The notes under the pieces were generated by a model. It worked only from the letters and a program-made list of their open reading frames with translations, was not told the origin of the DNA and ran no database searches. 64,000 bases of DNA, taken from Escherichia phage cardinal. This document shows positions 2,993 to 48,356 of the stretch, piece by piece. The stretch lies in sequence record PQ567651.1; one strand, 5' to 3'. The translations under genes and the position numbers were made by a program. How positions within the stretch are numbered: the first letter of the stretch is position 1; the number at the start of each line of letters is the position of its first letter.

Positions 2993-3003
2993 CTATGTGA
3001 TAT

Positions 3004-3031
3004 ATCTTACACTAATTTAAAACGTTGTCAA
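3004..3031 (-). promoter_or_regulatory. sigma70-like promoter (TTGACA, 16-nt spacer, TAAGAT)
   Basis: On the minus strand TTGACA at 3031-3026 and TAAGAT at 3009-3004; predicted transcript start falls at the edge of palindrome 2972-2992. Confidence 0.45.
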
Positions 3032-3126
3032 ATTATTTTCTATTTCTTCCGTAATAGCCCAATTTATGATCTAAGCTAAAACGTTTTGTGAGATAGGTCG
3101 AACGATGTTTCATTTTTATGTCTCCT

Positions 3127-3366
3127 TTACATTCCAACCATAGCGGCACGGATCGCGGTTTTACTGAACTTGAATCCGTCTGGCGTTTTATCTTGATCCA
3201 TACTTTCAAGAAATAACATCATATCCCGCGCTGCGTCATTCTTATTGGTGTTAGCTGCGATAAATTCACGCGCAAGATTATAAAAACCTTCATCGTTGTT
3301 GATCCAAAGGCTTACATTCCAATGAGTTTTGTTTTTGTGACCTAAGAACATTTTAGATTTAGCCAT
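3127..3366 (-). CDS. hypothetical small protein
   Basis: 79-aa ORF; palindrome 3391-3407 upstream. Confidence 0.5.
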   Translation of the reverse strand: MAKSKMFLGHKNKTHWNVSLWINNDEGFYNLAREFIAANTNKNDAARDMMLFLESMDQDKTPDGFKFSKTAIRAAMVGM

Positions 3367-3390
3367 GATGTTAATCTCTTTTTCAGTGAG

Positions 3391-3407
3391 GCGGGAACTA
3401 TTCCCGC
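3391..3407 (-). promoter_or_regulatory. GC-rich palindrome, same family
   Basis: gcgggaactattcccgc, identical core to the copy at 5227-5243; TGTCAA about 45 nt upstream on the minus strand. Confidence 0.5.
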
Positions 3408-3454
3408 TCTCGATATAAGTATTATATGCTTTTTATTCGTGCTGTCAATGCTTT

Positions 3455-3820
3455 TTATAAATCTTTTTTACGTTTAACATCGCTTGCATGACTGTATACA
3501 GCGATCCCATTATCACGGCAAAAACGGGAAAGATACGCGCCGCGTGAAAACTCTTTGCCCTCCAGGTTGATAACCTTGCTAAACTCTTCCAGGGCGACGG
3601 TATCAAAATGATCCCCATAACCATATTGAAACGGAACGTTAACGACTTCAATCAGTTTACCGCCGATCTCAACGTCAACCATCAAAGAGAAATAAGTATT
3701 ACCATAAGACTTTTGAAACCAGCGACGGGCGCTAATATGTACCGCTTCAATGCTGGATAGTTCAATTTTAGCAGTGTTAGCCAGGGTAGCATAAGCAGAA
3801 ACATTGATATTTTTAGCCAT
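3455..3820 (-). CDS. hypothetical protein
   Basis: 121-aa ORF in the co-oriented array. Confidence 0.5.
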   Translation of the reverse strand: MAKNINVSAYATLANTAKIELSSIEAVHISARRWFQKSYGNTYFSLMVDVEIGGKLIEVVNVPFQYGYGDHFDTVALEEFSKVINLEGKEFSRGAYLSRFCRDNGIAVYSHASDVKRKKDL

Positions 3821-4182
3821 AGTCTTTAATCTCTTTTGATTAGTTAGGAGTATTCCCGATAAAAGTTATTATGCTTGTACTATCGTTCGTTGTCAATAGC
3901 ACAAGACTAAAACTTTTAACGATAATCATCATAGGCTTTATTGACCTGGCGAATATAGCATTCAAAAGCTAGATCAATAGATTTATATTCACGGATATAA
4001 TCACCATAGGAAACCACATACATTTCTATAGCTTCCTCATATGCCAGGATGATAGAATCTAAACCTACGATCTCAGTCTTTGCAATAATAGCCATGCTTT
4101 TATTCCTTAGTAATGTTTCAATCTATATAAGCATTATAGCTTACTGATTTCAGGTGTCAAGTGATTTTTTATTTCACCTTAT

Positions 4183-18244: not shown

Positions 18245-18721
18245 ATGTCTAAACGTTTTGGTCGTAATCAAAAAAGAAAGTTAAGTGCTCAACTAGCAGC
18301 TTTGCAAAAAGAGGTTAACACTTTACAAAAAAGTGTTTGTGAACTTAAGGAACAAAACCAACTTGAAAAAGAGTGTATCCAGCTTACACAGGAAGTTATT
18401 GGTGAGTATTTTCCTTCACTAGTTCCTAAGAAGGTGGCTCTTAGGGAAAATCTACCTTTTACCTTGTCCTTAATGCAAGCAAATGATAGATTCCAAACTG
18501 AAACTGATGATTTGATGTTTGCAATGCATCAATTACATGGTTTAGAATATACAGCACAAGTGGATAAACTTCGTAACATGTTATATGTGCGGGTAGAAAC
18601 ACCTAAAGGTGAGACAGTAGCTTTTAATTATAATTTCCAACAGCTACCTGATCATATTATTGAACAAATTTTAAAACGAGATTTTGTTCCTATGCTTGTT
18701 AAACAAATTAAGAGAGGTTGA
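18245..18721 (+). CDS. hypothetical protein with N-terminal coiled coil
   Basis: 158-aa ORF; heptad-like QLAALQKEVNTLQKSVCELKEQNQLEKE. Confidence 0.5.
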   Translation: MSKRFGRNQKRKLSAQLAALQKEVNTLQKSVCELKEQNQLEKECIQLTQEVIGEYFPSLVPKKVALRENLPFTLSLMQANDRFQTETDDLMFAMHQLHGLEYTAQVDKLRNMLYVRVETPKGETVAFNYNFQQLPDHIIEQILKRDFVPMLVKQIKRG

Positions 18722-18722
18722 A

Positions 18723-21497
18723 ATGGCTAAGAAAGAGTTGAGCTTCACTCCGACAGAAGAGCAAACAGCTATTAAGGAGGCTTTTCCAGATCATCGCTTT
18801 TTAACTATCCAAGCTAAATCTGGATCAGGTAAAACGTCAACACTTTATTTGCTGGCTAACAGTACAGAAGATCGCATTCTTTACTTAGCTTTCAATAAAA
18901 GCATGGCAGAAGAAGCACGACGTAAGATGCCACCAAATGTAGAATGCCGTACATTGCATTCTATTTGCTATCAATTCCTGGATCATCGTTTACGTGCAAA
19001 ACTGTCACGACCAGAAGGACAGTATGTTAACGTTGCAGGTACAGGTAGCGAGATAGCAAAGAAATTTAAGATTAATAATCTTATTGATAAACGAGGGAAA
19101 ACACTTTTAACTCGTGCTATGATTGGTTTAATGATCAAGCAAACCGTAGGTAAGTTTGAATTTTCGGATGATCCTTTTATCAGCCGTAAACATTTTCCTA
19201 GTGTACATCTTGCAGATATTAAAAGAAAAGGTATTAACGAACACAAACTAATTACAGAAGTAGTTAAGTATGCAAAACAATTGTGGCGAGAGCGCATCGA
19301 TCCTAACACAGATACTTTGATGACGCATGACACCTATGTAAAATTGTTTGAATTGTCTGGTGCTGATCTTGGTTATGACATTATTTTTGGGGATGAATTC
19401 CAGGATGTTAACCCTGCATTCTTGTCTATTCTGCGAAATGCTAAATCTGCAAAACAAATTGTGGTAGTTGGCGATGAATTCCAATGTGTGTCGGAAAACA
19501 CGGTACTTAACACCGAGAATGGTCAGGTTACAATGAAAGACCTGCAAATCGGTGATAAGGTAGAGTCTTATTCTAATGGTAAAGTTACATTTAGAAAAGT
19601 AACAAATAAGACTTTATCTACACGTACAAAAGGTAGGAATATTATTACTGCTACAGGTAAAACTTTAGATATGACACATAACCATCGTATTTGGGCTTCA
19701 TCCTATGTTCTGAAAGATGACCAGATGGTGGTATACCTAATGTGGAGGAAAGATTTAGGTTTCCGAGTAGGGATCACTAACAAATTCGATGATAAAGAAG
19801 GTTTTTCTAAACTGGGGCAACGTACACGTTCTGAAAAAGCACAGAAATTATGGGTGTTGGACATTGTTGAAAATCGCGAAGCTGCTATGGAAAAAGAAAT
19901 GGCATACAGTTTACAATATGGCATTCCTACTTGTGTATTTGAAGCAAGTTCACGCGGCATTAATCAAGAAAGGATCAATAACATCTTTGAACAATTCGGA
20001 CAAAATGGTTTTAAACTTTTAGAGGATAAAGATTATCATTTTGCTTATCCACACTGGCACAGCATCAATTGTGCAGTAGATGAAAGAAAAATGCTAACAG
20101 TGACTTTGCGAGCACAAAGTTGTAAAGGAACACAAGTTAGTTTTGAGTGGACAGAAAGTGAAATGCCGATCTATTCTTCACTGATTAAAGCAGGTGTAAG
20201 CGTAAGTGCTGCTAAATTGGAAGGTCGTTACCGTGTACGTAAATATTTCAATTCTTATCGTGAAGCATTGAGTTTTGCACAAAAGATCCTTGAAATAGTT
20301 CCGTTTGCATCTTTAAAAGAATGCATGTCCTCTGTGAACAGTGCCAAATATAACTTAATTCCGGCAGCGGGTTTGTTTAAAGGCATGTCTGTGTTGGTAA
20401 AAGATGGTGATACTGTAACGGCAGAAGAGATTGTGGATATTGTAGATAGTGAGGGTATCTATTATGATATTGAAGTAGAGGATACTGCTAACTTCTTTGG
20501 CAATGAAATTCTTAGCCACAACTGCATTTATCAATTTAGAGGTAGCTCTAATATGATGATTGAAACAGCTAAGTATGGGGCAGAACTTCCATTAACTGCT
20601 TGCTTCCGTTTTGGCCCCAAAGTGGCAAACATTGCCAATATGATTTTAAGCGATAAAGAACCTTTGCGTCATCCTTTGGTTGGTAAAGGCTTTGATACTG
20701 TAGTAGGTAGCTACAAATCAGATGTTGTAGACTATACAAAACCTTACACTATCATCTTTCGCAAGAATTTAACCTTGCTTATGGAGGCAATGGATCGTAT
20801 TGCAGATGGGGAAGAAATTATTATTAACGTAGATACCAGGGATTTTATCTCTATGGTAGATAGTGTTAATGCTCTTCGGAGAGGAGATATTGAGAAAGTA
20901 AAACATGAAACTGTATTACCTTACGCAGACTGGGATGAATTTGTTGAGTGTGCAGAGGCTGATCCAGATGCTAAACGCTTGTTAAACATCGTAGTTTCTG
21001 GTAAGGCGAACACCATAGCACATACACTTAGAACGCACAGAAATTCTCCTACAGCAAAAGTCACACTTACTACAGCACACAAGTCTAAAGGTTTGGAGTG
21101 GGATCAGGTTATTGTTGCTAATGATTTTCCTTCCAACTATGATAAAAAGACTGGTGAATGGGTAGGACTAGAAGAGGCAGAGCGAAACCTACTGTATGTA
21201 GCGCATACCCGTTGTGTTAAATGCTTACAATGGAACACAACCGTACAGGAGATTATAGATATCAATCGTGTTGCAACAGAGAAAGTACCAACAAGCACCA
21301 CTTTACCGATCAATGGTATTAAACTTGGTGTATTTGGCGCTGGCACATCTCGAAAAACTGTAGAAAAATTTGTTGCAGATTCTTTTGATGGTAACTATAA
21401 TCATGCACAAGCATATGAGAGTTGGTTAGAGGAAGGTGAAGGTGATTTTTTAGGTGAAATAAATCTTTTACCAGACATAAATAAACTGGTAAACTAA
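18723..21497 (+). CDS. UvrD/PcrA-like SF1 DNA helicase containing an intein
   Basis: Walker A AKSGSGKTST, motif II FGDEFQDVN, motif III split as VVGDEFQ | intein | CIYQFRGSS; precursor 924 aa. Confidence 0.8.
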   Translation: MAKKELSFTPTEEQTAIKEAFPDHRFLTIQAKSGSGKTSTLYLLANSTEDRILYLAFNKSMAEEARRKMPPNVECRTLHSICYQFLDHRLRAKLSRPEGQYVNVAGTGSEIAKKFKINNLIDKRGKTLLTRAMIGLMIKQTVGKFEFSDDPFISRKHFPSVHLADIKRKGINEHKLITEVVKYAKQLWRERIDPNTDTLMTHDTYVKLFELSGADLGYDIIFGDEFQDVNPAFLSILRNAKSAKQIVVVGDEFQCVSENTVLNTENGQVTMKDLQIGDKVESYSNGKVTFRKVTNKTLSTRTKGRNIITATGKTLDMTHNHRIWASSYVLKDDQMVVYLMWRKDLGFRVGITNKFDDKEGFSKLGQRTRSEKAQKLWVLDIVENREAAMEKEMAYSLQYGIPTCVFEASSRGINQERINNIFEQFGQNGFKLLEDKDYHFAYPHWHSINCAVDERKMLTVTLRAQSCKGTQVSFEWTESEMPIYSSLIKAGVSVSAAKLEGRYRVRKYFNSYREALSFAQKILEIVPFASLKECMSSVNSAKYNLIPAAGLFKGMSVLVKDGDTVTAEEIVDIVDSEGIYYDIEVEDTANFFGNEILSHNCIYQFRGSSNMMIETAKYGAELPLTACFRFGPKVANIANMILSDKEPLRHPLVGKGFDTVVGSYKSDVVDYTKPYTIIFRKNLTLLMEAMDRIADGEEIIINVDTRDFISMVDSVNALRRGDIEKVKHETVLPYADWDEFVECAEADPDAKRLLNIVVSGKANTIAHTLRTHRNSPTAKVTLTTAHKSKGLEWDQVIVANDFPSNYDKKTGEWVGLEEAERNLLYVAHTRCVKCLQWNTTVQEIIDINRVATEKVPTSTTLPINGIKLGVFGAGTSRKTVEKFVADSFDGNYNHAQAYESWLEEGEGDFLGEINLLPDINKLVN
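19485..20522 (+). mobile_element. intein (346 aa) inserted in helicase motif III
   Basis: Begins with Cys (CVSENTVLNTENGQV...), ends ...EILSHN followed by +1 Cys; extein junction restores GDEFQ-CIYQFRG. Confidence 0.7.
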
Positions 21498-44555: not shown

Positions 44556-44951
44556 ATGAAAGACAACGAAAATATCCTCTATGGAGTATCCCCTTCTGCG
44601 TTAGGGTATGATTATACGAAAACTATTGCTAAGTTTAAATTTCAAGATGGATCGGAGTTAGAACCATACGGTTATGCTTATGGTGAACATTTGTGGTTTG
44701 AGGATGGTTGCCTATACCTTCTCATTCAAACTACCAGTGGTTTTGTGGGAGAGCTTGTAGATCGTATGCTGAAAAATGTTAGTGATAAAGTTGTTCTTGA
44801 TATCGCTAGTAAGGATGAAAACATTAATAACATTGTTTCCACTTTTAATGGTTTGACAGGCACTGTTAAAATTGAACGTGTAGGCTTGAGAAATACCAAT
44901 GGTGTCCCTAATTGCCTTATTAAAGTACAACTAAGTGCTGACAATAAATAA
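44556..44951 (+). CDS. hypothetical protein
   Basis: 131-aa ORF with GGAGAG RBS. Confidence 0.45.
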   Translation: MKDNENILYGVSPSALGYDYTKTIAKFKFQDGSELEPYGYAYGEHLWFEDGCLYLLIQTTSGFVGELVDRMLKNVSDKVVLDIASKDENINNIVSTFNGLTGTVKIERVGLRNTNGVPNCLIKVQLSADNK

Positions 44952-45041: not shown

Positions 45042-48000
45042 ATGGGAGCTTTTACTTTCGACATTGAAAGTAACAACTTGCTTAATGACGAAAGTGTAGA
45101 TTACTTGGCAAGTCCATATCGTTTAAAAGATAGTTTTGCAATGCACTGTATTGTGTGCGAAAGTCATGAGACTGGAGAGATTATTGCTTTCCATGATGGT
45201 GATAAATATCTTTTCGATGGTCGTCCGTATATTGAGACTGACGGAAAGTATGAATACCGACTGGAGGAATATGAGCATTTAGAATATACCCATTTCCCTC
45301 TTAAAGATTTTCCTGATTTTGTAAATGGAACAGGTAAATTTAAAGGTAATTCAAACTATAAAATTACCAAAGTAGTTGGACATAACATCATTAACTTTGA
45401 CTTACTGGCAATTAAATTATTTTTTAAACTCAACTACAGTATTAAGTACAATACTTGGGGTAATAGTAACATTGAAATTTGTGATACTATGATCTTAAGT
45501 AAGACACTAAACCCTGATCGCTTCGGTGGTCATAGTCTGGCAGAGTTATCTAAGAAAGCTGGAGGGGATGTTAAAATTGATTTTAGAAAAAACATCCCTG
45601 AAACTGAAAGATTTAAAACATTTGCAGCAGATATGCTGTATTACTGTATTTACGATAACAAAGCTAACACCGCAGTGTTCCGTTATTTGATGGAAGAGTG
45701 GGGTGATTATAATAAGTGGTCTGAACCATTTAACTTAGAACAACGTGTAGCTGATATTATTACACGTCAAGAGCACCGTGGCTTTGCTTTCAATATGAAG
45801 CAAGCAGAAGATAATATTCGTGATCTGGATGCTCGAATGGAAGCATGTCGTTTAGAGGCAGAACCTGTGCTACCTCCTAAACCTGCTACTAAAGGTTATT
45901 TGAAATCATTCATTCCACCTAAACTACAGTTTAAAAAGAATGGTGAACCTTCAAGTAACATGATAAAGTTTGCAGAGAAACATTCTGGTGAACTTGTACA
46001 AAAAGAAGATGGTTGGTGGTTATTTGCATTAGGTAAAGAGTTTAAACTGCCTATTCCAGCAGAAGAACCTATTTGTGATCCTACAGTACCTGCTACTTTA
46101 GACGACACTACACATATTAAAAATTGGTTAGTTGGTTTAGGTTGGAGTCCATCTGAATATAAAGATAAAGATATCACTCTTAAATCTGGCACTAAGATTA
46201 AGAAAGATGAAGCACAAATGGAGAAAGCTATTCGTGACTATGTTGATCAAACGTTAGCATCTAACTTCTGCCAGGACAGATGTGATCATCTGGAGTGCAC
46301 ACCAGAAACTTTGGAATGGAAACTAAGAGATCGTATTGCTAAAGCTAAAGGTCGTGGTGTTAAAGTGCTTACTAACCCTTCCTTTACAAAAGGGCAAGAG
46401 AAAGATATTTGTCCTAATTTGGAAGCACTAGGTGAAAAGTTTCCTTATGCTACGCAGATTGTGCAGTATCTTACGTATAAACACCGTAGGAACTCTATTC
46501 TAGGGGGTGGTGCTGATTGGGAAGAAGATGAAGAGGATTACGATAAAGGTTATCTGGCAGCAGTAAGGGCTGATGGTCGTATACCAACCCCTGCTGCAAC
46601 GTGTGATGCAGCTACGTCTCGTATGAAACATAGGTTAGTAGCAAATATCCCACGTGTAACATCTCTGTACGGATATGAAATGCGTAATTTATTTGGTGTA
46701 GAAGTTCCAAAATACTTCCAAATTGGTTATGACTTTGATTCTCTTGAGGCAAAAATAGAATCACACTACTGTGTACCTATGGATGCACAAGCACTAACCC
46801 GTAAAGGTTGGGTTGGTTATCACGATCTACAAGAAGGGGATGAAATCTTAGGATATAACCCAGAAACAGGACTTAAAGAATGGACTAAAGTAAAAGGTAA
46901 GGTCTTCTATAAAAATAGTAAGACGTTTGAGATTAAAGGGAAATCACACACTTACCGTGCAACAGCAGATCACCGTTGGTATGTTAATACCCGTAGTAAA
47001 GGGAATACTTATGTGCCTAAAGTCAGAACAACTGCCGAGCTTTGCACAGGAGATAATATTATTTGTAATGCTCCATTTAACATGGAACAAGATCAGGTAA
47101 ATAGTTTAACTTCTGTTCAACAAGGTAAATGGGATGTTCCGTGGGTAGAGCGTGTAGTTAATATGTCTCATGCCGAGCGTGTGGCTTTCTTGGAAGGTTT
47201 TTTGATTGCGGATGGTTACTGGCATGAACATAAACAAAAACCTGTTTGGCGTTGGGCGCAGAACCCAGGTGAACTTTTTGAAGCAGCTTTAACTGCCTCG
47301 TACCTGGTGCATGGAGGCAATATCTCTGTAGCTTTCAATACAAAAGAGCAGAAAGTAAAAGTGGCAACATTGGCTAACCGCTCTCACATTCCTGTTCAAA
47401 GTTTGACTATTGAAGAGTGGGGTGTAGAGGATGTTTGGTGTCCACAAACAGAACTTGGTACGTGGGTCATGCGTCAGAAAGACTGCATTACCATCACAGG
47501 AAACTGTTGGCGGTACGAGCAGGAACCACACGAATATTGTAATGCTCTATTATTGGAAAAACCTAATGATGTTCATACAATGATGGCTCGACGTATTTCT
47601 GACACTATTGGTCGTAAGTTTGAACGAAGCCCTGCTAAATCTGTTAAGTATGGTATTACTTATGGTGCTCAAGCTGCAAAAGTAGCAAAAACTATAGGTA
47701 GTGATATGTATACAGGACAGCTTGTATACGATGCTTTCTGGGAAGCTGCAAAACCTCTTGCGCTTCTTAAAGAACGTCTGCATGATTTTTGGGTTAAAAC
47801 AGGTAAGAAATACATTCTTGGTATTGATGGTAGGAAAGTACCTACACGATCTGCACACGCAATACTTAACTCTCTGTTCCAGAGTGGTGGTGTTATTTGT
47901 GCAAAAAGAGCAATGGTTATCTACGACGATCTTATCGAAGAAGAAGGATTAGCTGTTGACTTTTTTGTTGATGACTGGAAAAATAAGTCATTCGTTCAAC

Positions 48001-48356
48001 AAATGATTGCATATCACGATGAAGCACAGCTTGAAGTAACTCGTGATCTGGTGCATTTTAAATGGTTCTCTAAAGAATCTTTAGGTTGGACTCAAGTTGA
48101 TGATCCAGAGGAACAAAAGAAAATTGATAAAGAATGTTTGGATAAAGTTAATGCCTGGAAAGAAGAGGAAGAGAAGCGTACTGGCAAGATTTGGGCTAAC
48201 GTACATGAATCTCCAAAAGGTGGTTGGTTTACAGCCTACAGTCGTGCTGGAGAATTAGCATCTATTGCTGTTAATAAAGCTGGTGAGTATTACAATCTTA
48301 ATGTACCTCTCACTGCTGGATACGATGTTGGTAGTTCATGGTCAACTTGTCACTGA
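45042..48356 (+). CDS. family A (Pol I/T7-like) DNA polymerase containing an intein
   Basis: N-terminal 3'-5' exonuclease motif FDIESNNL; motif A region GYDFDSLEAKIESHY | intein | CWRYEQ...; downstream AKSVKYGITYGAQAAKVAKTIG aligns with T7 Pol AKTFIYGFLYGAGDEKIG. Confidence 0.85.
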   Translation: MGAFTFDIESNNLLNDESVDYLASPYRLKDSFAMHCIVCESHETGEIIAFHDGDKYLFDGRPYIETDGKYEYRLEEYEHLEYTHFPLKDFPDFVNGTGKFKGNSNYKITKVVGHNIINFDLLAIKLFFKLNYSIKYNTWGNSNIEICDTMILSKTLNPDRFGGHSLAELSKKAGGDVKIDFRKNIPETERFKTFAADMLYYCIYDNKANTAVFRYLMEEWGDYNKWSEPFNLEQRVADIITRQEHRGFAFNMKQAEDNIRDLDARMEACRLEAEPVLPPKPATKGYLKSFIPPKLQFKKNGEPSSNMIKFAEKHSGELVQKEDGWWLFALGKEFKLPIPAEEPICDPTVPATLDDTTHIKNWLVGLGWSPSEYKDKDITLKSGTKIKKDEAQMEKAIRDYVDQTLASNFCQDRCDHLECTPETLEWKLRDRIAKAKGRGVKVLTNPSFTKGQEKDICPNLEALGEKFPYATQIVQYLTYKHRRNSILGGGADWEEDEEDYDKGYLAAVRADGRIPTPAATCDAATSRMKHRLVANIPRVTSLYGYEMRNLFGVEVPKYFQIGYDFDSLEAKIESHYCVPMDAQALTRKGWVGYHDLQEGDEILGYNPETGLKEWTKVKGKVFYKNSKTFEIKGKSHTYRATADHRWYVNTRSKGNTYVPKVRTTAELCTGDNIICNAPFNMEQDQVNSLTSVQQGKWDVPWVERVVNMSHAERVAFLEGFLIADGYWHEHKQKPVWRWAQNPGELFEAALTASYLVHGGNISVAFNTKEQKVKVATLANRSHIPVQSLTIEEWGVEDVWCPQTELGTWVMRQKDCITITGNCWRYEQEPHEYCNALLLEKPNDVHTMMARRISDTIGRKFERSPAKSVKYGITYGAQAAKVAKTIGSDMYTGQLVYDAFWEAAKPLALLKERLHDFWVKTGKKYILGIDGRKVPTRSAHAILNSLFQSGGVICAKRAMVIYDDLIEEEGLAVDFFVDDWKNKSFVQQMIAYHDEAQLEVTRDLVHFKWFSKESLGWTQVDDPEEQKKIDKECLDKVNAWKEEEEKRTGKIWANVHESPKGGWFTAYSRAGELASIAVNKAGEYYNLNVPLTAGYDVGSSWSTCH
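46770..47504 (+). mobile_element. intein (245 aa) with LAGLIDADG-like endonuclease motif in DNA polymerase
   Basis: Starts CVPMDAQALT, ends ...ITITGN with +1 Cys; internal VAFLEGFLIADGYW resembles a LAGLIDADG motif. Confidence 0.65.

Follow-up and report, generated by a model that had tools for sequence, protein, structure and literature searches.

A predicted protein-splicing intein with a class 3-like residue triplet and one LAGLIDADG half-domain in the DNA polymerase of Escherichia phage cardinal

The DNA polymerase gene of Escherichia phage cardinal (sequence record PQ567651.1), a phi92-like myovirus of the genus Justusliebigvirus, subfamily Stephanstirmvirinae, is interrupted in frame by 245 codons that, judging from the family alignment and the predicted structure, almost certainly encode a genuine protein-splicing intein. 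The whole stretch of 64,000 nucleotides that was analyzed is hereinafter called the window, and all coordinates refer to it unless stated otherwise. Taken as a whole, the observations are probably best explained by a splicing intein with a class 1 start that is, at the same time, a mobile element homing by means of a homodimeric LAGLIDADG half-domain. The intein itself is already known, being annotated in GenBank in sister phages, and the remaining interest would lie in the family-wide combination of a class 1/class 3 hybrid active site with a conserved half endonuclease. The features of the host gene, with the basis of each assignment in parentheses, are the following.

45042-48356, + strand: intein-containing precursor gene of a T7-like family A DNA polymerase with a 3'-5' exonuclease domain (open reading frame list, Pfam DNA_pol_A, T7 match)
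45042-46769, + strand: N-extein, amino acids 1-576, ending ...IGYDFDSLEAKIESHY (alignment with the intein-less polymerase of phage ALITA and with T7 polymerase)
46731-46733, + strand: motif A Asp, D564, within the N-extein
46770-47504, + strand: intein, 245 amino acids, Cys1 ... Thr243-Gly244-Asn245 (indel against intein-less alleles, AlphaFold model, Foldseek, family profile)
47505-47507, + strand: Cys+1, first C-extein residue and predicted splice-junction nucleophile (translation)
47505-48356, + strand: C-extein, CWRYEQE... through motifs B and C up to the stop codon (ALITA and T7 alignments)

The precursor comprises 1104 amino acids including the intein and 859 once spliced, and its gene shares 99.0-99.2% identity with the polymerase genes of Salmonella phage UAB_1, Justusliebigvirus VEcB (OZ035773) and phage ESCO32. 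An earlier sequence-only reading had described an insert running from CVPMDAQ to ITITGN and followed by Cys; translation of 46770-47504 indeed gives exactly 245 residues, with Cys as the next codon. In ALITA, the exteins of which show 98.4-99.7% nucleotide identity to the window, the junction reads ...KIESHY/CWRYEQE..., with nothing between (a slash marks the insertion point or splice junction throughout), and given that this polymerase is uninterrupted despite the near-identical exteins, the feature has to be a precise 735-nucleotide in-frame indel rather than a divergent polymerase stretch. The same uninterrupted ...ESHY/CWRY... is seen in ALITA, VEcB, alia and others, with flanks that are 98-100% identical, so that the insertion is in frame and absent from orthologues; across the insertion point, the intein-less allele reads ...AATCACACTAC/TGTTGGCGG.... 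Because a Cys is present at both ends, comparison of alleles alone leaves a boundary ambiguity of one codon, and only the frame chosen in the sequence-only reading yields Cys1...Asn/Cys+1. The placement just after motif A was also correct: once the insert is removed, the remaining 859 amino acids are colinear with T7 DNA polymerase on both sides of the junction (E=8e-21), with D564 and E569 on the T7 motif A GIDASGLELR; the insert follows Y576, 12 residues past the motif A Asp, and the next polymerase residue is the counterpart of T7 M488. Alignment of the region as ordinary polymerase sequence, an outcome that had been named as speaking against an intein, was not what we found: the insert is a clean indel, and upon its removal the Pfam DNA_pol_A match becomes continuous, spanning residues 498-757 of the spliced protein.

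So what is the nature of the inserted 245 residues? The identification of an intein in the DNA polymerase is borne out by the agreement of the intein-less alleles with a family profile, a predicted structure and fold searches. The AlphaFold model of the intein (pLDDT 79.7, pTM 0.77) shows a predicted HINT strand pattern, and when it was compared with the PDB using Foldseek, all 44 of the 44 matches at E<=0.001 were inteins, bacterial intein-like (BIL) domains or a hedgehog autoprocessing domain. The top match is the endonuclease-bearing TliVMA intein (E=6e-8, TM-score 0.64, normalized by query length), with PI-SceI also among the leading ones. A single-sequence search of the PDB sequences gave best E-values of only 0.09-0.9, yet the matches are inteins, and a small family profile matches the solved Spl DnaX, NrdJ-1 and AceL NrdHF inteins with E=6e-5 to 1e-3. 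The residues at the junctions, C1, N245 and C+1, are those of an intein, and block B contains the Thr-x-x-His motif (T65-A-D-H68); the penultimate His at block G position 6 is replaced by Gly244. What weighs against an intein is the behavior of the curated profiles, which the sequence-only reading had proposed as a check: Pfam Intein_splicing scores the insert at 14.7 bits (cut-off 35.8) and LAGLIDADG_3 at 12.7 bits (cut-off 22.5), both sub-threshold, and the NCBIfam and PHROGs profile searches of the insert return no match. Thus, the family profile, the model and the fold searches detect HINT and LAGLIDADG domains where curated profiles are sub-threshold or silent, and since the latter miss the insert, that check, taken at face value, would have wrongly rejected the intein. 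About 34 isolated carrier phages are viable with the intein in their sole polymerase gene, from which we infer that splicing must work: the intein would excise itself post-translationally and join Tyr576 to Cys+1, whereby the polymerase would be restored.

The insert belongs to a large family that came to light only through an exhaustive HMMER search, which yielded 2,248 cluster representatives at E<=1e-3 and 79 at E<=1e-30, whereas a word-indexed homologue search gave 9 proteins only. Its distant relatives lie in unrelated proteins, namely tape-measure, portal, terminase, NrdA and other polymerases. From 158 proteins (150 from the exhaustive search plus the word-indexed set), 163 family inteins were extracted, 120 of which align with the query over the full length; together with the window copy these make up the 121 sequences on which the conservation counts are based. 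All 163 start with Cys and, with a single exception, end in Thr-Gly-Asn. Approximately 122 of them are 220-280 amino acids long, approximately 35 are 290-375, and five are mini-inteins of 138-163 amino acids, in a sample skewed to the query's own architecture. The form of about 250 amino acids occurs at many unrelated sites: Pol A motif A, motif B, a TGR/SPN motif and a KNGxY site, a primase-helicase, a phosphoesterase, and a 'KFDVYP/SAYANGWA' protein. We also observed that seven metagenomic proteins (P0029, P0044, P0047, P0057, P0073, P0133 and P0150) contain two family inteins per polypeptide; in P0029 and P0044 these lie in an apparent metallophosphoesterase-type protein, assigned by motifs only, at '..KLVE/SFQGGEKP' and '..HKFDY/CYPR'. 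The splicing elements of the window intein are listed here.

46770-47078, + strand: N-terminal splicing lobe, amino acids 1-103, with block A CVPMDAQALTRKG (family conservation, register of the MP-Be intein)
46962-46979, + strand: block B, T65-A-D-H68-R-W70 (T65/H68/W70 in register with S62/H65/W67 of the MP-Be intein)
47400-47504, + strand: C-terminal splicing lobe, amino acids 211-245, with block F ..EDVW-C224-PQTELGTWVMRQ (family conservation, MP-Be spacing)
47439-47441, + strand: codon of C224, block F position 4
47496-47504, + strand: block G, ITI-T243-G244-N245

In the family alignment, Cys1, Thr65, His68, Cys224, Thr243 and Asn245 are each present in 121/121 sequences, Trp70 and Gly244 in 120/121, and G13 is invariant or nearly so. 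The +1 residue of the 120 family members is Ser in 53, Cys in 37 and Thr in 30, and nothing else. The penultimate Gly noted in the sequence-only reading is therefore real, but the Gly-Asn end, which had been called atypical, is a trait of the family.

The defining features of class 3 inteins are Trp at B:12, Cys at F:4 and Thr at G:5, along with the lack of a nucleophile at position 1 (PMC2807308, PMC3196547, PMC5222942). We re-extracted the class 3 prototype, the 341-amino-acid MP-Be 'DnaB' intein, from Bethlehem gp11, and its S62, H65, W67, C320, T339, H340 and N341 match the published numbering (PMC2807308). The window intein can be placed in gapless register with blocks B and F-G of this prototype: C224 corresponds to C320, each of these residues standing 21 positions ahead of the terminal Asn, and T243-G244-N245 corresponds to T339-H340-N341, so that the complete class 3 triplet, W70/C224/T243, is present without gaps against W67/C320/T339. 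The register is taken from the Bethlehem prototype, given that a search with the C-terminal 45 residues against the solved class 3 inteins (blocks F and G) gave chance matches only. Two other features do not conform to class 3: the position 1 nucleophile is retained, as Cys1, throughout the family, and the window copy has Cys rather than Ser or Thr at +1. Of 37 inteins with the triplet, only 3 have been recorded with Ser1 or Cys1 (PMC2807308). The family pairs the full triplet with an invariant Cys1, and the Trp, Cys and Thr of the triplet are more unusual than the Gly-Asn end.

In terms of mechanism, Cys1 most likely would start splicing by the class 1 route, and Cys224, Trp70 and Thr243 would form a class 3-like catalytic center around His68, with Gly244 in place of the usual penultimate His. 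Because both Cys1 and the Thr at B:7 are invariant, the sequences lead us to favor a class 1 start as the probable one. Could splicing, instead, follow the class 3 route, with Cys224 rather than Cys1 attacking the N-terminal junction and the N-extein being passed from a block F branched intermediate to Cys+1? This is a serious, albeit less probable, possibility. The triplet occupies the exact B:12, F:4 and G:5 positions of the Bethlehem prototype with identical spacing (PMC2807308) and is essentially invariant (120/121 for W70, 121/121 for C224 and T243); at +1, 83 of the 120 family members have Ser or Thr, the residues that also prevail in class 3 (PMC5222942); a phage origin, which has been put forward for class 3 (PMC3196547), applies to this family as well; and there is the precedent of the triplet combined with Ser1 or Cys1 (3/37; PMC2807308). 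Against this stands, first and foremost, Cys1, kept in 121/121 sequences where class 3 inteins typically have a non-nucleophilic residue (34/37; PMC2807308). Furthermore, Thr B:7 is invariant, as in class 1, whereas the class 3 prototype can do without it (PMC2807308); the Bethlehem RDF intein, a relative with Cys1, Cys F:4, a TGN end and Val at B:12, has been treated as class 1 (PMC5050341); and the Cys+1 of the window copy is rare in class 3.

With a class 1 start preferred, the next issue is how the intein came to reside where it does. The synonymous divergence (pS) between the window and three other carriers differs sharply between the intein and its host gene.

Window vs ESCO5 (Phapecoctavirus): N-extein 0.755, C-extein 0.665, intein 0.148
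Window vs PaulScherrer (same genus): N-extein 0.045, C-extein 0.073, intein 0.205
Window vs KP13-16: N-extein 0.71, C-extein 0.64, intein 0.80

The low intein pS compared with that of the exteins across genera implies a recent transfer between genera, and the 60 extein codons beside each junction, with pS of 0.74 and 0.68 against ESCO5, are far above the intein in divergence. Within the genus, the pattern is reversed, the intein being more diverged than the host gene when compared with PaulScherrer, and against KP13-16 the divergence of intein and exteins is similar. At the nucleotide level, the window intein is a mosaic: the first approximately 100 nucleotides are identical to PaulScherrer and the remainder is almost identical to ESCO5, the similarity to this Phapecoctavirus type ending exactly at the 3' splice junction. 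The G+C content of the intein is 41.8%, against 37.0% and 39.0% for the host gene, and at third codon positions (GC3) the corresponding values are 31.8%, against 25.9% and 24.0%. Both genera hold intein-plus alleles, intein-minus alleles, and alleles with a two-motif intein at motif B. Sporadic presence combined with a history unlike that of the host gene is the mark of a mobile element; the suggestion of a potentially mobile intein gains support from its presence or absence among near-identical phages and from a divergence incongruent with the host gene, and it appears very probable from these sequence comparisons that the intein is horizontally mobile.

The motif B intein belongs to the same family, consists of 324 amino acids with two LAGLIDADG motifs, and is located 49 residues downstream in phiWec187, nieznany, nepoznato, ukendt and AV126, which represent both genera. 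Comparison with these relatives places the corresponding sites as follows.

47652-47657, + strand: empty second intein site at motif B, KSVKYG/ITYG (comparison with relatives)
3001-3972 of locus L003: the motif B two-motif intein in a relative

At its empty motif B site, the window has Ile where the occupied allele has Cys+1, and phiWec187 has Thr at +1 of its own empty motif A site. The site B intein is found, too, in five records labeled 'Campylobacter phage' with the host C. jejuni (MG065639, MG065645, MG065650, MG065656 and MG065689); their polymerase is approximately 97% identical to that of E. coli Phapecoctavirus, and the host labels look doubtful.

Which enzyme, then, would mobilize the intein at motif A? 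A free-standing nuclease encoded by the small open reading frame at 44556-44951 (+ strand), between the primase-helicase and the polymerase, was considered and set aside: its only match is to a PHROG of unknown function (E=3e-90). In ALITA this open reading frame bears the label 'endonuclease', for which we found no support here. The intein has a domain of its own that could play this role.

47130-47393, + strand: single LAGLIDADG half-domain, amino acids 121-208, alpha-beta-beta-alpha-beta-beta (AlphaFold model)
47181-47222, + strand: LAGLIDADG motif VAFLEGFLIADGYW, intein residues 138-151
47211-47216, + strand: D148-G149, end of the LAGLIDADG-like helix
47259-47261, + strand: Q164

In the model, a helix ending in an acidic residue (Asp148-Gly149) is followed by an alpha-beta-beta-alpha-beta-beta core, as expected of LAGLIDADG proteins; the half-domain modeled alone yields weak Foldseek E-values, with a match list that consists almost wholly of LAGLIDADG enzymes. 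The internal LAGLIDADG motif claimed in the sequence-only reading accordingly stands as far as the type of domain is concerned, but each chain has one motif and one half-domain rather than the usual two-motif enzyme. Relatives with two half-domains exist: the inteins of phiWec187 (324 amino acids) and Bethlehem RDF (317 amino acids) have the architecture of the window intein plus a first half-domain of approximately 80-100 residues. Among the 121 sequences, position 148 is Asp or Glu in 119, position 143 has only Gly, Ser or Ala, Gly149 is present in 120, and Gln164 is invariant. The ratio of nonsynonymous to synonymous divergence (pN/pS) is 0.03-0.12 in pairwise comparisons over all parts of the intein, indicative of purifying selection; with values of 0.04-0.12, the half-domain is no different from the splicing lobes, and this holds against the 90%-identical KP13-16 copy, in which synonymous sites are near saturation. 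The conserved residues, the low pN/pS, the many insertion sites and the dispensability of the domain in mini-inteins together argue for a working function of the half-domain, and the sequences argue for a homodimeric endonuclease as the simplest such function.

Single-motif LAGLIDADG enzymes form homodimers (PMC2655683). By analogy, two intein molecules would associate through their half-domains, in the manner of I-CreI or I-CeuI, and the resulting endonuclease with two active sites would cut intein-less polymerase alleles during co-infection, whereupon recombinational repair would copy the intein in. On the sequence evidence, we lean slightly to the view that mobility would be driven by this half-domain endonuclease of the intein itself. 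Several considerations weigh against it. A homodimeric enzyme would normally favor a pseudo-palindromic site, and no significant palindrome is seen in the target around the insertion site, where the best score of 7/11 is at chance level over 62 centers. The beta-hairpins of the modeled half-domain are short, 5-8 residues, and would offer only a small surface for DNA contacts. We know of no characterized intein endonuclease that acts as a homodimer. Finally, a contribution of the half-domain to folding could also account for the purifying selection on it.

These points feed into a rival scenario that we consider rather unlikely, namely that the intein is real but its endonuclease is dead, the half-domain being a remnant that was left after deletion of the first half and is kept only for the splicing fold. 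Spread would then be passive, via general recombination between co-infecting phages or via cuts made by another nuclease. The phiWec187 and Bethlehem RDF inteins, which are equivalent to the window intein with those approximately 80-100 residues placed before the retained half-domain, are what such a deletion would predict, and the single motif per chain, the target that is not clearly palindromic and the short modeled hairpins all fit as well; moreover, these phages recombine readily, as the mosaic within the intein illustrates. The difficulty is that a dead remnant should not show pN/pS as low as that of the splicing lobes, nor should the metal-binding Asp/Glu and Gln164 be conserved far beyond the needs of folding; the splicing fold does not require such a domain, as is evident from the mini-inteins of the family (138-163 amino acids). 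In addition, the architecture of about 250 amino acids occurs at many unrelated sites, which implies that new sites were invaded in that form, and the match to ESCO5 breaks off precisely at the splice junction, beyond which the exteins are 20-27% different, a poor fit to plain homologous recombination. A scenario in which the 245 residues are a domain retained, unspliced, in the mature polymerase could appeal to the sub-threshold scores of the curated intein profiles but is highly improbable, considering that the insert splits the palm beside motif A, has the invariant Cys1, Asn and +1 nucleophile at its ends, recurs as the same module in unrelated proteins and adopts a HINT fold in the model.

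The window contains, in addition, a second intein of another type, a 346-residue insert in a UvrD-like SF1 helicase (19485-20522, + strand, within the open reading frame 18684-21497). It lies inside motif III, VVVGDEFQ/CVSENTV...EILSHN/CIYQFRGSS, ends in the canonical His-Asn and has an Asp in block F. Among the Pfam profiles, it reaches 29.9 bits for Hint (cut-off 29.7) and E=4e-8 for Intein_splicing, and its middle domain does not resemble LAGLIDADG.

Tentatively, then, one could propose that a large and largely uncatalogued family of phage inteins joins the Cys1 of class 1 to the Trp-Cys-Thr center of class 3 and to a one-motif LAGLIDADG endonuclease that acts as a homodimer of two inteins. 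If this were true, the family would be either a surviving intermediate on the way to class 3 or the stock from which that class arose, with a bearing on the debate over whether this class derives from a standard phage intein (PMC3196547) or arose by a separate route (PMC7664689), and it would include, to our knowledge, the first homodimeric homing endonuclease borne by an intein. In any case, the family offers natural material for comparing a class 3 center with class 1 and for asking whether half a LAGLIDADG enzyme within an intein can drive homing. Both questions are directly testable, given that the BASEL collection has an intein-plus phage (PaulScherrer) and an intein-minus one (EmilieFrey) of the same genus. 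In practical terms, phi92-like and phAPEC8-like coliphages, in wide use for therapy and as models, produce their polymerase as a precursor that needs splicing, and the failure of standard profile libraries to flag the polymerase intein is an issue for annotation. For protein engineering, a fast-splicing intein with a C-terminal Gly-Asn and Cys+1 could be a useful scaffold.

How does the window intein compare with known systems? PaulScherrer (MZ501100, BASEL collection, 2021) and SD2 (PQ821640) carry the annotation 'intein-containing DNA polymerase precursor'; their intein occupies the same insertion site and shows 98.8% amino acid identity to the window copy. The BASEL inteins were identified by comparative annotation (PMC8594841), and in PaulScherrer the mat_peptide (3232-3966 of locus L001) is set one codon too far downstream, giving Val...Cys rather than Cys1...Asn. 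The same intein is present, unannotated, in phi92, PD06, ESCO5, ZCKP1 and approximately 30 other records, most of the other records naming the gene 'DNA polymerase' or 'hypothetical protein'; in the searchable literature we found no description of it. Among more distant systems, I-CreI, I-CeuI, I-MsoI and I-Vdi141I are free-standing, intron-encoded enzymes with long DNA-binding hairpins and pseudo-palindromic targets, whereas the half-domain in the window is embedded in an intein and has short hairpins, with no palindromic target evident. The PI-SceI, PI-PfuI, TliVMA and PhoVMA inteins, to which the model as a whole is most similar, likewise harbor a LAGLIDADG domain within the HINT fold, between blocks B and F, but possess two half-domains per chain (in PI-SceI, also an extra DNA-recognition region), compared with the single one of approximately 90 residues here. 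The class 3 inteins (MP-Be 'DnaB'/Bethlehem terminase gp11, Msm/Mch DnaB1, AceL NrdHF) have the triplet in the same register, are phage-associated and are among the fold matches; they have no nucleophile at the N-terminus, and their usual residues are His at G:6 and Ser or Thr at +1, in contrast to the Cys1, Gly G:6 and Cys+1 of the window intein. Phage inteins often do without the penultimate His, and in the Bethlehem RDF intein splicing goes to completion with the native Gly but is slow in the G316H mutant (Kelley et al. 2016, PMC5050341). Re-extracted from the genome, this intein shows Cys1, a '..EVWC..' block F and a '..LTGN/S' end, and it scores 53 bits with the family profile (E=3e-18 in a two-sequence test search). 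It differs in its length of 317 amino acids, its two half-domains, Val at B:12, and another host protein (a metallophosphoesterase) and phage group, but this experimentally spliced intein (PMC5050341) shares with that of the window Cys1, the '..VWC..' Cys F:4 and the Thr-Gly-Asn end.

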